From a virus (taxonomy: Duplodnaviria > Heunggongvirae > Uroviricota > Caudoviricetes), in IMG/VR virus record IMGVR_UViG_2870495154_000004, positions 1-51,251 of that record: a stretch of DNA of 51,251 bases. The stretch is one strand, 5' to 3'. Numbering within the stretch: the stretch's first letter is position 1; every line of letters starts with the position of its first letter. The notes beneath the pieces are model-generated. The model worked only from the letters and a program-made list of their open reading frames with translations. It did no database searches and was not told where the DNA came from. A program made the position numbers and the translations under genes. Of the stretch, positions 12,983-44,698 are shown piece by piece.

Positions 12983-13040
12983 CCCACAAAAAAGCCCGCC
13001 TGAACCAGCGGGCTGTCATAACACTGTGTTACCTGGCTAA

Positions 13041-32453: not shown

Positions 32454-32630
32454 TGTTCATTCCACGGCCAAAAACAGAGAAAGGAAACGACAGAGGTCCA
32501 AAAGCTCGTTTTCAGCACCTGTCGTTTCCTTTCTTTTCAGGGGGTATTTTAAATAAAAACATTAAGTTACGACGAAGAAGAACGGAAATGCCTTAAACCG
32601 GAAAATTTTCATAAATAGCGAAAACCCGCG

Positions 32631-35735: not shown

Positions 35736-36788
35736 TTATTTCCCCACCAGCTCGTTTATCTCTTTCACTGTCTGGTTAAACCGCTCTGACTCAAGCTCAA
35801 CACCTAAGGCCCGACGCCCCAGCGCCATTGCTGCTTTTATTGTGGAACCGGATCCCATAAAAAAATCAGCAACCAGATCACCAGGTCGACTACTGGCATT
35901 GATTATTTGCCTGAGCATATCCGCCGGTTTCTCACACGGATGTTTACCCGGGTAGAACTGAACGGGTTTATGCATCCAGACATCGGTATAAGGCACGGAG
36001 ACTGATACGGAGAAATAGCGCCGGAGAGATTTAAACTCATCCAGCAATTCAGAATATTTGCGATTCAGTGAATCATAAGATGCCACCAGCTGGTGGTGTG
36101 GTTGTTCCAGTTGTTGTTCCTGAAACTTCTCTGCCGCTATACGGGAAAACAGTGCCTGTAACTTCCGATAGTCAGCCTCATTCGGCAACTGCCACTGACT
36201 GGCACCAAACCAGTGGGAAACCATATTTTTCTTACCTGTGGCTTCGGCAATTTGTTTTGCCGTTATACCCAGTTCGGCACGAGCATCCCTGAAATACGAT
36301 ATCAGCGGTGCCATTATGTGCTGTTTGAGTTCCCTTTCTTTTGCCGCATAGCCGTCACTTTTGCCGCGATATGGCCCCTGGTAATGTTCAGCAAACAGAA
36401 CGCGCTCTGTGGCAGGAAAATATGCGCGCAGACTTTCTTTATTACATCCATTCCAACGTCCGGACGGCTTCGCCCAGATGATATGGTTAAGCACGTTGAA
36501 ACGTTCACGCATCATGATCTCAATATCAGATGCCAGACGATGCCCACAGAACAGGTAAAGGCTTCCGGCAGGTTTTAACACCCGCCAGAACTGGGCCAGA
36601 CAGTGGTCCAGCCACTTAAGGTAATCTTCGTCCCCTTTCCACTGATTGTCCCAACCGTTGGGTTTCACCTTGAAGTAAGGCGGATCGGTAACAATCAGGT
36701 CAATGGAATCATCAGGCAGGGACTGAATAAAATGCAGGCAATCAGCGTTGATTAAATCAACACTGTTTATTTTTACAGTATTTTTCAT
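35736..36788 (-). CDS. DNA methyltransferase (N6-adenine/N4-cytosine class, DPPY motif)
   Basis: 350 aa; LIVTDPPYF motif near N-terminus and FFMGSGST near C-terminus. Confidence 0.8.
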
Positions 36789-36938
36789 GGATCAGTAAGC
36801 GTAACTCTGGTAGGCTCACTCTGCTTTTGCGCTAAAGCAGTGGGCCGTGGTTCGCTTGTGACCAGTAAGCATGAGCGAATGGCTGGCAGGTGCTACCAAC
36901 ACCCACCAGCCGCCCATTTTCACAGCAGGAAACCGCCA

Positions 36939-37166
36939 TTACTGGCAGCGTCTGAATTTATTCCCATACCCGCCGTTATCCTTCGCCAGACCCGCCAGAA
37001 CTAACTGAGTCAGTATTAACTGGCACCGGGCTTCGCTTACTCCGGTAGTTCTCGTCATCATGCGTGGCGTTACCCACTTGTCAGCAGGTAGGAAATGAAG
37101 GACTACGGCGGCGGTTTCTGTCATATCTTGCTGTTTTAGCATGTCTTTTTCCCTTCTGGTTAACAT
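36939..37166 (-). CDS. FaeA-like small winged-helix regulator
   Basis: 75-aa ORF; AVVLHFL...WVTPRMMTRTTGVSEARCQLILTQLVLAGLA resembles FaeA-like HTH proteins. Confidence 0.4.
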   Translation of the reverse strand: MLTRREKDMLKQQDMTETAAVVLHFLPADKWVTPRMMTRTTGVSEARCQLILTQLVLAGLAKDNGGYGNKFRRCQ

Positions 37167-37264
37167 GACATACCAATAACTCTTGTCTAAAAAGCCAGCA
37201 AGATAAAAAGCCAGTATTCACGACCACCAGCGTGTTTACTGTACTGCACCAGGTTTACAGGTAC

Positions 37265-37289
37265 AAAAAAACCGCTCAACTGCGGTTTT
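37265..37289 (-). terminator. rho-independent terminator (minus-strand orientation)
   Basis: AACCGC-loop-GCGGTT hairpin followed by a T-run on the minus strand. Confidence 0.55.
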
Positions 37290-37355
37290 AAGGAAGGAGT
37301 CGAAGTAACCACTCTTAACATGATACAATTATTTTTGCGGACCGCGTAAGCGTTT

Positions 37356-37389
37356 ATATAGTGTCAACATGCCAAAGATGACACTATAT
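37356..37389. promoter_or_regulatory. palindromic operator-like element in a promoter-rich region upstream of the NYN gene
   Basis: 10-bp inverted arms ATATAGTGTC / GACACTATAT, 14-bp spacer; TTGACA hexamers at 37391 and 37433. Confidence 0.4.
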
Positions 37390-37542
37390 GTTGACAGCAG
37401 AAAAAATTTACATTTAAACAGTGCAAAATTTGTTGACAACGCAAATGTCAATAGTTAATTATTGCGTCACCAGCTCAGCACTGTTCGTAGATAATATTTA
37501 GGGTCTACTCAACGGTTCTGAGCTTTTTTTGTGAGTTTTTCA

Positions 37543-38406
37543 ATGAAGAAAACAGCAGTCTTGATTGACGGCGGCTACTTCATCCGTCGGATTGATTACT
37601 TTCTACGAAAACATTTCCCTGGGCATGAGTTAGACAGCCAACAACTTGTTAAAATAATCTGGCGAATTGTTAAATTTCATGTAGAGGTTCCACATGGTGC
37701 TCACGCTGACCGTGAACCACTTGAGCTTTACCGTATTTACTATTACGACTGCCCGCCGCTTGATAAACAGATTAAGTATCCTTTGCCTGATGGAGACAAC
37801 AAAACCCCATCAACTAAAAACTTCAAGACACATGCTCCGAATGTTTTACGAAACAAGCTTCATGAGGAGCTAAGGAAGAATCGTAAAACGGCACTTCGTA
37901 TGGGTATTCTTTCAAACGTCGGTAACTGGCAAATAAAAGAACATACTCTTAAGAAACTATTACGTAATGAAATTCAATGGTCTGAGTTAACTAACGACGA
38001 TTTCTACTACGAATATAAACAAAAAGCCGTCGATATTAAGCTTGGTATGGATATAACTATCCTTGCTCATGAGAAACTAGTTGATGTGATCGTCCTGATT
38101 GCTGGCGATGCTGATTTCGTTCCTGCCGCTAAACATGCCCGTATAAAGGGTGTGGATTTTATCCTCGATCCAATGAACCAACAAGTTCCTCCCTCACTGG
38201 CAGAGCACGTCGATGGAGTGCAATCGAGCAACATTGTTGTTGCAATTGCTGATATTTGCAGAATCGTCCCAACAGTAAAACCTGATTGGTGGGACGATTA
38301 TATTGACAGACGCAAAGAGAAAAAACTCAATCGTCAAAAGAAAACAAAATCATCTAAGAACGAGCCCAAGAAAAAAACACTTCAATCTGAAACATCCCCG
38401 GCTTAA
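37543..38406 (+). CDS. NYN-domain (PIN-like RNase fold) protein
   Basis: AVLIDGGYF ... DIKLGMDI ... LIAGDADFVPA acidic motifs; lysine-rich tail; AT-rich; opposite strand to flanking phage genes. Confidence 0.6.
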   Translation: MKKTAVLIDGGYFIRRIDYFLRKHFPGHELDSQQLVKIIWRIVKFHVEVPHGAHADREPLELYRIYYYDCPPLDKQIKYPLPDGDNKTPSTKNFKTHAPNVLRNKLHEELRKNRKTALRMGILSNVGNWQIKEHTLKKLLRNEIQWSELTNDDFYYEYKQKAVDIKLGMDITILAHEKLVDVIVLIAGDADFVPAAKHARIKGVDFILDPMNQQVPPSLAEHVDGVQSSNIVVAIADICRIVPTVKPDWWDDYIDRRKEKKLNRQKKTKSSKNEPKKKTLQSETSPA

Positions 38407-38413
38407 GCCGGGG
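38396..38413. terminator. perfect palindrome CCCCGGCTTAAGCCGGGG between convergent NYN and Q (likely bidirectional terminator)
   Basis: 7-bp GC stem, 4-nt loop containing the NYN stop codon; 5 bp from the Q stop. Confidence 0.5.
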
Positions 38414-38418
38414 TTTCA

Positions 38419-38784
38419 CTAATCCATTTCAAGTTTAACATCCAGAATTGAAAGGCATCCATCAATAAACCCCTCAGCCATCTGTATCTCAATGCGTATT
38501 AGTTTCTCATCCTTTCCACGCGCCTTTGCAATCTTACGCTTGGATATTCTGTATAAATAATGTGCCACAAGAAGCGAATGCTCATCAGGTCTTTTTTGCT
38601 TTAGACGTGCAAGACAACCTTCAATAATTAATGCATCACTATCTGAACAAGCCTGACGTGTTTTGCTTGTATAGGGAAGAAGCCCTTTAAACCCAGCAGC
38701 TATAGGAGAATAATCTACTCCTGAACTATCACTCGCCGCCCATGCTCCCCAACGATCCAGAACCATCTGAATATCACGCATCAC
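38419..38784 (-). CDS. Q: late antiterminator Q (phage 82 type)
   Basis: MRDIQMVLDRWGAWAA...IAAGFKGLL...EGCLARLK...LIRIEIQMAEGFIDGCLSILDVKLEMD matches Q82 family. Confidence 0.85.
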   Translation of the reverse strand: MMRDIQMVLDRWGAWAASDSSGVDYSPIAAGFKGLLPYTSKTRQACSDSDALIIEGCLARLKQKRPDEHSLLVAHYLYRISKRKIAKARGKDEKLIRIEIQMAEGFIDGCLSILDVKLEMD

Positions 38785-38799
38785 CTTTCTCCGAAAAAA

Positions 38800-39795
38800 T
38801 CAGGCCAGCACGCCAATTGCCAGCGCGCGATCGATAAAACGAAATATCAGCTCCAGCTGGGAGCCATACTTTTCTTCAAATGCCACGGTATCCGCATGCA
38901 GCTCGTCGTGATGCTTTCTGCACAAAGGCAACACAAAAAGGTCATGCGCTTTTGTTCCCATTCCACCCTGACCGTAACCTATCAGGTGGTGGGGATCATC
39001 AGCGGGCTTTCCACAACATGCACACGGCTGTGTCTTAACCCAGCGCGTGTACTTTTCATTAACCCAGCGGCGACGTTTTGGGCGTAACATAAAAGACTCC
39101 GGCGACTCCGGATCCACTTTCAGCGCCAGCACCTTTTTCGCCTTATCCTGGATGATGCTGGTGGCAGGAACCGAAGGCACAAGGTCACTTTCCCGGGTGA
39201 CAGACGGCACAACAGGCTTCGGTAATCTAAGTGCCTTACGGGCTGCACTTTCCGGTAAGGCATCCGCCAGGTCATTACGAATCAGCCACCAGCACAGTTC
39301 CGGCATTGTCACAACGTGACTGTCATCAAAACCGAGATCCCGACGCACAACAGACAACACCCAGCGGGCACAGTTATCCGTTGCCATTGATTCCAGCCGT
39401 TCCGTGAACTGATCGCGCAGCTGGTTATCGCAGTGCCAGCACAGACGGATTGCGCCCGGAGCGTGTCGCATTGTGGTCATGTTCTCGCTGTGCCAGTCGG
39501 AATGAGGCCACTGGCAGCCTTTTTCACGAAGTAACCAGCTTTCAAGACATTCCACGCCACCAGCACGACGGATCACTGCCTCATTGCGGAACACGGCCCG
39601 AACGGCAGGATCATCCGCCAGCGGTTGTGATGCCGCCGGAACGGCACCACTGGCGAAAGATGAATAACGTTCCGGCTCAGGCTCCAGCAGGACACGCCCC
39701 TGCATAAACAGGGGCATCAGCTCTGAACCTGGCCTGAACAATACGATCCCCATACGCGGGGCAATTTCAGGAGTCAGTAGTGCTCTCACGGTCAC
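38800..39795 (-). CDS. DUF968-family protein (YdfU-like) with C-terminal Cys/His HNH-like motif
   Basis: 331 aa; CACCGKPADDPHHL...CRKHHDELH; typical neighbour of Q. Confidence 0.6.
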   Translation of the reverse strand: MTVRALLTPEIAPRMGIVLFRPGSELMPLFMQGRVLLEPEPERYSSFASGAVPAASQPLADDPAVRAVFRNEAVIRRAGGVECLESWLLREKGCQWPHSDWHSENMTTMRHAPGAIRLCWHCDNQLRDQFTERLESMATDNCARWVLSVVRRDLGFDDSHVVTMPELCWWLIRNDLADALPESAARKALRLPKPVVPSVTRESDLVPSVPATSIIQDKAKKVLALKVDPESPESFMLRPKRRRWVNEKYTRWVKTQPCACCGKPADDPHHLIGYGQGGMGTKAHDLFVLPLCRKHHDELHADTVAFEEKYGSQLELIFRFIDRALAIGVLA

Positions 39796-41820: not shown

Positions 41821-42758
41821 CCCCTGAATCCTGCCGGGATCTGGCTGTAGTCCACGTTGTCGTAACTGGCTTTGAAGTACGGGTCTTCGCGTTTTTCGGT
41901 GTACGTGCTGACGGACGGCGATAAGCGCAGGGAAAGCTCATCCCATTTTTCCCGCAGCTTCGACGGGCTGAGCACGTTACGGCACCAGAACGGATCGCGG
42001 CTGACGCGGCTGTACATCTCGCAGATTTGTTTGTGAGTACGACCATCCTGCACACACATCAGGCGAATTTCGTTTGCCCAGGCTGTCCAGTTCGGTTCTT
42101 TGGGACGAACCACCTCGCCGTCACATTCGGCGGCCTGCTCGTACAGGGCGATGATTTTTTTCCAGAGCCACTGTGCGCAGGTCAAATCATCCTGCGTTCC
42201 CCACTGGCGCTTTTTAGGGCTGAATACAACCGCATTAGGATGGCGAGTTAAAAACTCCTGTTCAGCCGTCTGCGTGTCCGGTTGCGAAGCGTCCGGACGA
42301 GAAGTTTTTTTATCTGACGGATCATGTTTTGATTTTACTGACGGATCCCCGCCAGATTCTGACGGGTGAAAACCCGCTTTTTTGCCAGATTTCGACGCAT
42401 CAAATTTTGACGGGTCAGATTTTGATGCGTCAGATTTTGACGGGTCAGAATCTGACAATTGAGAAAATGCCGCTGCCTGAAGCTTCGCAACGTTAAGCTG
42501 ATAAACATTCGACGCATTGCGGTTACCCTGGCGACGCGCCTTACGCGTTAACCAGCCTTCTGCTTCCAGCCGTGCGATAGCCGTTCTGACGGTACTCATC
42601 CCCGCGCCAATCTGACGGGCAATGGTTTCAATTGATGGCCAGCACACACCTTCGTCATTACTGAAATCAGCCAGGCGGGCCATAATTGCCACGCTGGATA
42701 ATTTCATGCCTGACGCAGCGCAACCATCCCATACATAGCCGGTTAATTTAGTGCTCAT
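41817..42758 (-). CDS. replication initiation protein, lambda O-like N-terminal HTH, with internal iteron-encoded repeat
   Basis: N-terminus MSTKLTGYVWDGCAASGMKLSSVAIMARLADFSNDEGVCWPSIETIA is Phage_rep_O-like; internal SKSDASKSDPSKFDASKS repeat. Confidence 0.75.
   Translation of the reverse strand: MSTKLTGYVWDGCAASGMKLSSVAIMARLADFSNDEGVCWPSIETIARQIGAGMSTVRTAIARLEAEGWLTRKARRQGNRNASNVYQLNVAKLQAAAFSQLSDSDPSKSDASKSDPSKFDASKSGKKAGFHPSESGGDPSVKSKHDPSDKKTSRPDASQPDTQTAEQEFLTRHPNAVVFSPKKRQWGTQDDLTCAQWLWKKIIALYEQAAECDGEVVRPKEPNWTAWANEIRLMCVQDGRTHKQICEMYSRVSRDPFWCRNVLSPSKLREKWDELSLRLSPSVSTYTEKREDPYFKASYDNVDYSQIPAGFRG
42386..42457. repeat. replication origin iterons (five tandem ~15-bp repeats inside the O-like gene)
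   Basis: tandem CAGATTTTGACGGGT-like units; same arrangement as lambda ori. Confidence 0.6.
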
Positions 42759-43106: not shown

Positions 43107-43699
43107 GCGTTAGTTTCTCCACAGTCACGACACGCCACGGCGCCCGGAGCTGCACACTCGCGGGCGTCACTACTTTCTGAAACGCAAAAGATTTTGTAGA
43201 CCAGAGCTGCATGCTCCTGCAGCTTCGAAATTGAGAGGTACAGCTCATCGTTAATTGCTGTCTTCTCATGCGGTTCCACTACACCGTCTTCAATTGCTGA
43301 ACGAATCTGTCTGGAATAACTGCCGATCTGTTCAATGACTTCCAGCAGACGCTGGTTAATATCGGCATTGTCCACATCCTCGACGTCAGGAAGAGACACA
43401 AAGATGCCATTTGCAGACTGCGCCACAGCGTCAGCAATGAAGTGAGTTCCACCAGCACGTTGCAAAATCATTGCCCATCCCAGCGGGAAAATCTGATCGC
43501 CATCGGCACGAAGGCGGTTAAATAATGCGTTCTCTGTTACATCCAGCCAGTCAGCTGCTTCAGCGTAACCACCCGGCAACTTTGCGATAGTTTTTCTGAC
43601 AGCTTTCACGTACCACTCAGGCTGTTTTTCTACTTTCCAGTGATGCTTACCCACGGTTAGCCTCATCGTTCTGTGGTTTCTGTTAATCGATTTATCCAT
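43103..43699 (-). CDS. CII-like regulatory protein (CP76 phage-regulator family)
   Basis: ATG overlaps cro stop (AATGGATAA coupling); [22 protein letters not shown]...FIADAVAQ resembles CP76-type CII; alternative starts 43711 and 43768. Confidence 0.5.
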
Positions 43700-43892
43700 T
43701 AGATTTTTCATAAAGCTCAGGTTTAAATGGCAACCGTCCGCAAGTTCTATATGCAGCTTCTGCTGCACGTCCTTTTGGAATTAACTGGCCCGGACGGTTT
43801 CGCCACTGATAAACGGCTTCAGTTGTTATGCCGAAAAAAGCAGCAACTTTCTCAATACTGCCGAAGTAGCTTTCGATATCGTCAGTTGTCAT
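43692..43892 (-). CDS. cro: Cro-like repressor
   Basis: 66-aa HTH protein divergent from cI across the operator region. Confidence 0.75.
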   Translation of the reverse strand: MTTDDIESYFGSIEKVAAFFGITTEAVYQWRNRPGQLIPKGRAAEAAYRTCGRLPFKPELYEKSNG

Positions 43893-43904: not shown

Positions 43905-43967
43905 CTAAGTTTTGTTAGATGCTAATTACAAATCTATCTTTGGTCAATAAAAACTAAGATTACTTAG
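43905..43967. promoter_or_regulatory. OR-like region with two CTAAG-N4-(C/G)TTAG operators between cro and cI
   Basis: CTAAGTTTTGTTAG (43905-43918) and CTAAGATTACTTAG (43954-43967) in the 97-bp divergent intergenic region. Confidence 0.55.
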
Positions 43968-43989: not shown

Positions 43990-44616
43990 ATGGAAACGGT
44001 TGGTCAGCGTATAAAAGCTCTGAGAAGAGTTACCAGAACGTCCCAGAAAGAATTGGGTAAATTTTGTGGAGTAAGCGACGTTGCTGTGGGGTACTGGGAG
44101 AAAGACATCAATACCCCTGGCGGGGAGGCACTTTCGAAATTAGCGAAGTTCTTCAATACGTCAATAGATTACATTCTTTACGGTGCTGAGTTTGAAGGCA
44201 AACTCGTCACAAACATGCGCAGAGTTCCTGTAATATCGTGGGTTCAGGCTGGGCAGTTTACTGAGTGCAGGGCAGCAGAAGTGTTTAGTGAAGTGGACAA
44301 GTGGGTAGATACATCATTAAAGGTTGGTGATAACTCATTTGCATTAGAGGTTAAAGGTGACTCCATGACTAACCCTAATGGCCTCCCAACAATACCAGAA
44401 GGCGCAACAGTGATTGTAGATCCAGATGCAGAACCTCGTCATGGAAAAATAGTCATCGCTCGACTTGATGGAACAAACGAAGCTACAGTAAAAAAATTAG
44501 TCATCGATGGCCCTCAAAAGTTTTTAGTGCCATTAAATCCTCGGTATCCCAACATCCCTATCAATGGTAATTGCCTTATCATTGGTGTAGTCAAAGGAGT
44601 TCAATACGAACTCTAA
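43990..44616 (+). CDS. cI: CI-type prophage repressor (HTH + S24 LexA-like peptidase)
   Basis: 208 aa; N-terminal HTH, C-terminal S24-like domain with GDSM serine motif. Confidence 0.85.
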   Translation: METVGQRIKALRRVTRTSQKELGKFCGVSDVAVGYWEKDINTPGGEALSKLAKFFNTSIDYILYGAEFEGKLVTNMRRVPVISWVQAGQFTECRAAEVFSEVDKWVDTSLKVGDNSFALEVKGDSMTNPNGLPTIPEGATVIVDPDAEPRHGKIVIARLDGTNEATVKKLVIDGPQKFLVPLNPRYPNIPINGNCLIIGVVKGVQYEL

Positions 44617-44669: not shown

Positions 44670-44698
44670 TTGTCATGATAACTAAGTTAAGTTAGATT
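44670..44698 (+). promoter_or_regulatory. candidate pL/OL: TTGTCA -35, 17-bp spacer containing a third CTAAG-type operator, TAGATT -10
   Basis: operator CTAAGTTAAGTTAG at 44682-44695, same family as the OR sites, 66 bp after the cI stop. Confidence 0.4.

Follow-up and report, generated by a model that had tools for sequence, protein, structure and literature searches.

An inserted NYN gene and a lambdoid late promoter share a divergent control region that holds a candidate protein-binding palindrome

The palindrome and clustered TTGACA hexamers noted at positions 37356–37440 of the prophage sequence analysed here (the window, 51,251 nt in full) were confirmed, and their interpretation was supported in part. 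Most of this is an ordinary region. It belongs to a known general class of divergent control region, in which the promoter of an inserted gene stands back to back with a lambdoid late promoter. The flagged 85 bp would represent the middle of this compact region, which would extend over ~155 bp. To the right, on the plus strand, the promoter of the NYN gene (P_NYN) would direct transcription into a 51-nt hairpin and a run of seven U residues (U7), so that mostly an RNA of ~60 nt would be made and NYN would be produced by read-through. To the left, on the minus strand, would lie the late module of this Q subfamily, with Q acting at GCGGTCCGC, a start site at ~37313 and the terminator tR' ending at ~+49. 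The palindrome between both promoters may be a symmetric protein-binding site, either an upstream operator or an insulator, that was brought by the version of the NYN cassette present at this site. Comparison of related loci tips the balance in favor of this explanation as a whole, i.e., divergent P_NYN and leader, late module, and palindrome as a candidate protein-binding dyad or insulator, if only slightly. The palindrome is a modest regulatory puzzle, and the NYN leader RNA and the insertion hotspot between Q and the late promoter pR' are the more notable by-products of the analysis.

The window represents a lambdoid prophage whose late operon is on the minus strand. The NYN-domain gene (37543–38406, plus strand, 287 aa) is an inserted gene, or "moron", situated between the late promoter and the antiterminator gene Q (38419–38784, minus strand; 121 aa, PF06530, Q21/933W family), with which it is convergent. 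Its ATG at 37543 agrees with the RefSeq annotation in identical E. coli copies, and the flagged stretch lies within the 370-bp gap to its left. The late side, on the minus strand, comprises a 75-aa ORF (36939–37166), a DNA methylase, an S21-like holin and a lysozyme-like ORF. The 75-aa ORF, which is the first of the late operon and had been called FaeA-like in the original prediction, had no match in Pfam, NCBIfam or PADLOC; it adjoins the methylase, and this arrangement is kept in cdtI, SfV and Stx2_EH1846. A 40-aa minus-strand ORF at 37329–37451 was rejected as a gene because stop codons interrupt it in two diverged loci, L018 and L020.

The NYN product appears, from its sequence, to have a single NYN-type nuclease domain and a lysine-rich tail; its Pfam match covers residues 105–208 only, and searches against PADLOC and NCBIfam returned weak, sub-threshold matches only. 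As with morons of other lambdoid phages, such as those in the Q-to-lysis region and at the rexAB position, the insert is one gene that has a sigma-70 promoter of its own and whose transcription does not depend on the late operon. It differs from them in that its terminator, being part of the leader, precedes rather than follows the gene, and in that the gene converges on Q, whose stop codon is only 12 nt away from its own (38406–38419). In ev099 and Brookers, homologues of NYN with 59–60% identity are located after cI. Read-through transcripts of NYN would be antisense to Q, which recalls the annotated paQ antisense promoter of phage 21.

The two plus-strand TTGACA hexamers that had been reported, at 37391–37396 and 37433–37438, were both present, and two further copies that had been missed were observed on the minus strand (37362–37367 and 37446–37451). 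TTGACA is depleted in the window, with 17 copies found compared to 32 expected, and four of these 17 lie within 37362–37451; in none of 150 first-order simulations were four observed within 90 bp. The hexamer at 37433 is, by comparison between loci, the -35 of the NYN gene's own predicted sigma-70 promoter (37433–37462, plus strand), as it is followed after 17–18 nt by a -10 of TAATTA/AATTAT (37456–37462), with transcription predicted to start at ~37469. In a consensus scan this promoter scored 10/12, with AATTAT placed 18 nt after TTGACA, and its hexamers and spacing are close to the sigma-70 consensus. In 26 of 28 distinct NYN loci from Enterobacterales, Pseudomonas and Pasteurellaceae (homologues from phages, viral contigs and genomes), TTGACN was followed, after 16–18 nt, by a -10 in which A2 and T6 are present and which ended 6–12 nt ahead of the leader hairpin.

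The proposal of a tightly regulated promoter upstream of NYN was thus borne out as regards the promoter, and not as regards the palindrome as its core operator. The palindrome neither overlaps nor abuts the core of P_NYN; it spans about -113 to -80, with its center ~97 bp upstream of the predicted start. Tight regulation is plausible, and the conserved terminator in the leader is a better-supported device for it than the palindrome. The promoter core is instead overlapped by another dyad, TTGACA-N7-TGTCAA at 37433–37451. An exact inverted copy of the -35 pentamer was present in the spacer at 9 of the 28 NYN loci (chance, ~1.3% per locus), and its spacing varied among loci between 3, 6 and 9 nt.

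On the plus strand, the TTGACA at 37391 has the appearance of a degenerate copy of the NYN promoter's -35 segment. Both are included in a direct repeat of 18 nt (37386–37403 and 37428–37445, 78%), and in the diverged cassettes the hexamer reads TTGATA or TTGATT, with no conserved -10 after it. Promoters built from this hexamer, from TTTACA or from the TATAGT arms were considered and rejected, as no -10/-35 partner was conserved across the three cassette variants. Two A/T-rich conserved blocks on the plus strand, AAAATTTACA (37403–37412) and TGCAAAA (37422–37428), lie at ~-67 to -41 of the NYN start, which would be the position of an UP element for the NYN promoter.

The NYN leader (37473–37530, plus strand) consists of a three-helix hairpin of 51 nt (37473–37523; -20.2 kcal/mol) and U7 (37524–37530). 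The hairpin begins two to four nt past the predicted start, and the U-tract ends 12 nt before the ATG. In an RNAalifold analysis of 24 aligned leaders, 11 of the 15 consensus pairs had compensatory double changes and almost none were broken, and a loop motif, AAUNGUUAG, was conserved. A covariance model of the leader scored 75.8 bits in the window and gave one strong match (52–85 bits) per NYN locus at 32 loci, while no match was found in six non-NYN cassettes. In the rest of the window, its only hits were 19.8 bits at 12986–13015 and the reverse strand of the leader itself, both near E = 0.1. The conserved leader precedes NYN homologues in several gammaproteobacterial lineages, and more distant homologues from other phyla have analogous, but different, hairpins. 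Because a conserved hairpin and U7 follow P_NYN, most transcripts should end as an RNA of ~60 nt, with NYN made by read-through only, and the leader terminator probably keeps NYN low. The leader suggests that NYN nucleases are restrained at the RNA level, and it provides a small, testable RNA-protein pair.

There is a known family to which this arrangement can be compared. The Rfam family RF03535 (TEG147) likewise consists of a hairpin and U-tract directly upstream of an NYN homologue, and the NYN leader of a Streptococcus locus (L141) scored 57.6 bits against it, above its gathering score of 56.1. In S. aureus, Teg147 was observed as an RNA of 60 nt (PMC5826253). In contrast, the leader in the window, which is of a proteobacterial form, matched neither TEG147 nor any other Rfam family at E ≤ 10, and its sequence and loop motif are unlike those of TEG147. 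The layout of promoter, small structured RNA, intrinsic terminator and nuclease gene is shared with type III toxin-antitoxin (ToxIN-like) systems, whose terminator between RNA and nuclease has its counterpart in the conserved U7 of the window, 12 nt before the ATG. The leader is a single hairpin without the tandem repeats of type III toxin-antitoxin RNAs, however, and NYN is not a ToxN/AbiQ-type toxin, so that the likeness would be one of layout only.

The late promoter was not found inside 37356–37440, where it had been suspected to lie in displaced form; the pR'-qut-tR' module, which travels with Q, is by comparison located directly to the left, at 37350–37265 on the minus strand. The predicted pR' (37320–37350) has a -35-like CTTACG (37350–37345), the palindromic GCGGTCCGC (37345–37337), a -10 of TATCAT (37325–37320) and a likely start at ~37313. 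Its -35 is poor and is separated from the -10 by 19 nt. The initial transcribed region and tR' follow (37265–37317), with TAAGAG at 37317–37312, CCGC at 37285–37282, GCGG at 37275–37272 and T7 at 37271–37265. The terminator thus has the form CCGC-N6-GCGG plus T7, ends at ~+49 from the predicted start and is annotated as a terminator in SfV. On the opposite strand, an Rfam match below threshold to STnc130, an sRNA of Salmonella, overlaps tR' (37161–37297, plus strand; 25.5 bits, E = 0.5). Homology with cdtI, vB_EcoS-569R4, SfV and Stx2_EH1846 extends from 37170 to ~37358 and stops at the palindrome.

The same block was observed downstream of Q in 75 of 80 viral contigs with this Q subfamily, whatever insert intervenes, and has the order A-tract, TCAYTAACGCGGTCCGCA, ~15 variable A/T-rich nt, TGTTAAGAGTGGTTAC and terminator. 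The distance from the Q stop codon to the block was 26–45 nt in the 11 of these 75 loci that have no insert, and in the rest the two are separated by 857–2756 nt of varied DNA. As the block is constant and the intervening DNA varied, the gap between Q and the block represents an insertion hotspot and the block represents the late control module. This is a busy insertion site, as most of the 80 sampled loci carry one of many cassettes. In the loci L027–L106, the gap (37352–38418 in the window) had 38 distinct junction sequences, insert-free loci included, and the inserts of cdtI and vB_EcoS-569R4 are two-gene cassettes on the opposite strand.

Across the 38 variants, column conservation revealed T-A-n-n-n-T within the variable stretch, i.e., the pattern of a -10 hexamer, which corresponds to TATCAT at 37325–37320 in the window. 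Also invariant was GCGGTCCGCA at -32 to -23, a palindrome and candidate Q-binding element, and an A-tract lies at -46 to -40; GCGGTCCGC is probably the site at which Q binds. A different late promoter, for which the A-tract would be the -10, was considered and set aside, as it fits the T-A-n-n-n-T conservation and the annotation in VT2-Sakai less well. Comparison places the likely start of late transcription. Insertion of the NYN cassette has separated Q from the late module, so that the late promoter lies 1.1 kb from Q, yet is intact, and Q must act at that distance across a gene on the opposite strand.

The late control module of phage 21 has the order pR'-QBE-SDPE-tR' (GenBank OL657228 annotation; Shi et al. 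2019, PMC6606751). In the curated record, its -35 begins 7 nt past the Q stop codon, a Q-binding element lies between -35 and -10, a pause element, TAAGCT, is at +2 to +7, and the terminator is at +3 to +50. A 2019 study by Yin et al. is reportedly another source for this module, whereas a 2018 study of pR' regions (Olavesen et al., PMC6266700) had no data on start sites or qut sequences of use for this comparison. Both phage 21 and the window have a Q from PF06530 and, downstream of it, a compact module that carries a conserved element between -35 and -10, a -10-like motif of the TAAG type close to the start site and an intrinsic terminator that ends at ~+50. They differ in that the candidate Q-binding element of the window is the palindromic GCGGTCCGC, compared to two direct repeats, (A/T)TGAGCA, in phage 21, and in that the window's module has a poor -35 and is separated from Q by a 1.1-kb opposite-strand gene. 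The Q of the window is only distantly related to the Q21 chains, with a marginal match of 20 bits in a PDB sequence search. TAAGAG lies at -4 to +2 of the predicted start compared to +2 to +7 for the phage 21 pause element, and therefore the position of either the start site or the pause element in the window is uncertain.

Another counterpart was found in VT2-Sakai/933W (AP000422), which has TTTACG-16-TATCAT, then GATAAGAGTGGTTAC and a terminator, the late promoter annotated there being only putative. The window and VT2-Sakai have an identical -10, TATCAT, followed by (G)ATAAGAGTGGTTAC and a terminator, and in both a palindrome overlaps the -35 side. The 933W-type Q of VT2-Sakai is 47% identical to that of the window, its palindrome is TACGATCGTA compared to GCGGTCCGC, its spacer is 16 nt compared to 19 nt, and it has no cassette between Q and the promoter. 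Three branches of PF06530 Q differ in the element between -35 and -10: it is GCGGTCCGC in the window (37337–37345, minus strand), TACGATCGTA in VT2-Sakai/933W and, in phage 21, a pair of direct repeats, ATTGAGCA/AATGAGCA (1128–1139 in L278 and 1147–1162 in L279 are the coordinates in the compared loci). A TAAG(A/C) motif near the start site is common to all three.

The palindrome itself is real, and its arms are 11 nt long, not the 10 that had been reported. The left arm, ATATAGTGTCA (37356–37366), is complementary at 11 of 11 positions to the right arm, TGACACTATAT (37379–37389), across a spacer of 12 nt (37367–37378), and thus has the full dyad symmetry expected of a repressor operator. Three places in the window have a perfect inverted repeat with arms of 11 bp or more and a loop of 3–30 nt, compared to a mean of 0.35 per window in first-order Markov simulations. 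Because 24% of these simulations contained one or more, a single repeat of this kind somewhere in the window is not rare; the chance of one in the 370-bp intergenic gap is ~0.0025. The other two places are 32481–32531 (13-bp arms, 25-nt loop) and 42394–42431 (11-bp arms, 16-nt loop). Among near-identical copies in E. coli and viral contigs, three of the six variable sites in 225 nt fall within the 12-nt loop (37370, 37371 and 37373, substituted in different strains) and one falls in an arm, at 37380, in one strain only. Only three of the 11 pairs in the stem are G-C, and as there is no T-run on either strand the palindrome is not an intrinsic terminator. An Rfam scan of 36700–38900 at E ≤ 10 gave no match at the palindrome or at the leader.

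The palindrome was found only in NYN cassettes that lie between a Q gene and a late promoter, i.e., in the window type, in L020, whose Q is 82% identical, and in L018/L108, an Edwardsiella prophage with a Q of the lambda family (PF03589) and in which the stretch upstream of the -10 has been replaced. It was absent from all other loci with the Q subfamily of the window; no comparable inverted repeat was observed upstream of the late block in 37 other cassette variants at the Q/late-promoter site; and NYN cassettes elsewhere, whether at chromosomal loci or, as in ev099 and Brookers, after cI, lack it. By this distribution the palindrome belongs neither to the late block nor to the minimal NYN cassette. 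In all three diverged cassettes the order is the same: the pR' -10, 30 nt, the 34-bp dyad, 43 nt and the NYN -35. Relative to the predicted late start, the dyad spans -76 to -43 and abuts the -35-like region of pR', with its center at ~-59.5 and its proximal arm, at -53 to -43, beside the expected position of RNA polymerase.

The outer 7-mers, ATATAGT and ACTATAT, are identical in the window and L018, and the loop and inner arm positions differ. In L020, the outer 7-mers are ATTTGGT and ACCACAT in equal register; here the arms have changed at matching positions, with two pairs compensated. Geometry and outer half-sites have thus survived ~35% divergence of the surrounding sequence and the presence of two Q families. 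In the window, the palindrome folds as single-stranded DNA with -8 kcal/mol and z = -3.75 compared to shuffled sequences. The corresponding hairpins of L018 and L020 are weak or do not exceed shuffled sequences in stability, and the comparison is weaker for L018 because the segment used was missing part of the left arm. That half-site sequence and spacing are conserved while the hairpin is only weakly so favors a symmetric site for protein binding over a folded structure.

Several other readings of the palindrome have to be weighed against this one. If it were an operator at which a dimeric prophage repressor (CI, Cro or a small downstream protein) tightly represses the NYN promoter, its perfect dyad symmetry, the conservation of arms compared to loop and the real promoter downstream would all be explained. 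We nevertheless regard this as decidedly unlikely, since the center lies outside the promoter core and the cassette encodes NYN only, with no cognate regulator nearby. The idea of CI or Cro as the repressor, raised in the original prediction, was not supported, as their putative operators have the form CTAAG-N4-CTTAG, which is unlike the palindrome and was found only between cro (43692–43892, minus strand) and cI (43990–44616, plus strand), at 43905–43918 and 43954–43967, and downstream of cI, at 44682–44695. The half-site of the palindrome, searched in the window with up to two mismatches, had matches no more often than by chance, and there was no second copy. The small downstream candidate, the 75-aa ORF, lacks a match to any Pfam or NCBIfam family, the same outer half-sites are present in an Edwardsiella prophage with a different Q, and NYN promoters elsewhere do without the palindrome. 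Less probable still is that the late promoter has been displaced into the palindrome and TTGACA cluster, where the minus-strand TTGACA at 37367–37362 could, for instance, serve as its -35. This hexamer, inside the left arm, is of consensus sequence, on the correct strand and upstream of tR', but at 16–18 nt downstream of it the sequence is CGGTCC and no -10 is present. It lies at -54 to -49 of the predicted pR' start, and is therefore not the -35 of pR'; it is missing in L018, L020 and every other locus with this Q; the Q-linked block begins to the left of the palindrome; and the promoter annotated in VT2-Sakai aligns with 37350–37320.

The folding result in the window, the two compensatory arm changes in L020 and the bias of polymorphism toward the loop would suit a palindrome that acts as a structure, either in DNA, as a cruciform or hairpin, or in RNA, as a hairpin that serves as a processing or stability signal in early minus-strand read-through. 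This is an unlikely reading given the poor hairpins of the diverged cassettes, the loss of the four inner pairs in L018 where the outer 7-mers keep their sequence, and the lack of a T-run on either strand. The palindrome could also be without a function of its own, as a cassette-exchange junction that, together with a degenerate copy of the -35 segment, simply moves with the cassette. Its position exactly at the boundary of homology with other phages, the direct repeat at 37386–37403 and 37428–37445, and the function of NYN cassettes elsewhere without it are consistent with this; its geometry and outer half-sites, kept over so much surrounding divergence and two Q families, and a polymorphism that spares the arms argue against it, and we consider it improbable, if marginally less so than a structural role. 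A symmetric protein-binding site therefore seems to us the better reading, although its half-sites, 27 bp apart center to center, would be unusual for a simple dimer, and the dispensability of the palindrome in other NYN cassettes and the lack of a regulator gene in this one also count against it. More speculatively, NYN and its leader hairpin could form a two-part RNA-nuclease module for prophage defense, with a new antitoxin-like or sensor RNA and an NYN RNase, that the palindrome at the Q/pR' site couples to, or insulates from, firing of the late promoter. We regard this as quite unlikely; if true, the output of NYN would shift when the prophage or an invading relative enters late transcription.

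A search of viral contigs for TATATAGT-N19-CACTATAT gave >120 matches. As this pattern is of low complexity, these matches are uninformative on the palindrome; beyond copies of the same locus, they consisted of paired CACTATATATAGTG boxes. During this search we noted that many large, mostly AT-rich viral contigs (loci L158–L277) have pairs of the self-complementary CACTATATATAGTG ~33 bp apart. These box pairs, which are unrelated to NYN, were often observed just upstream of start codons.
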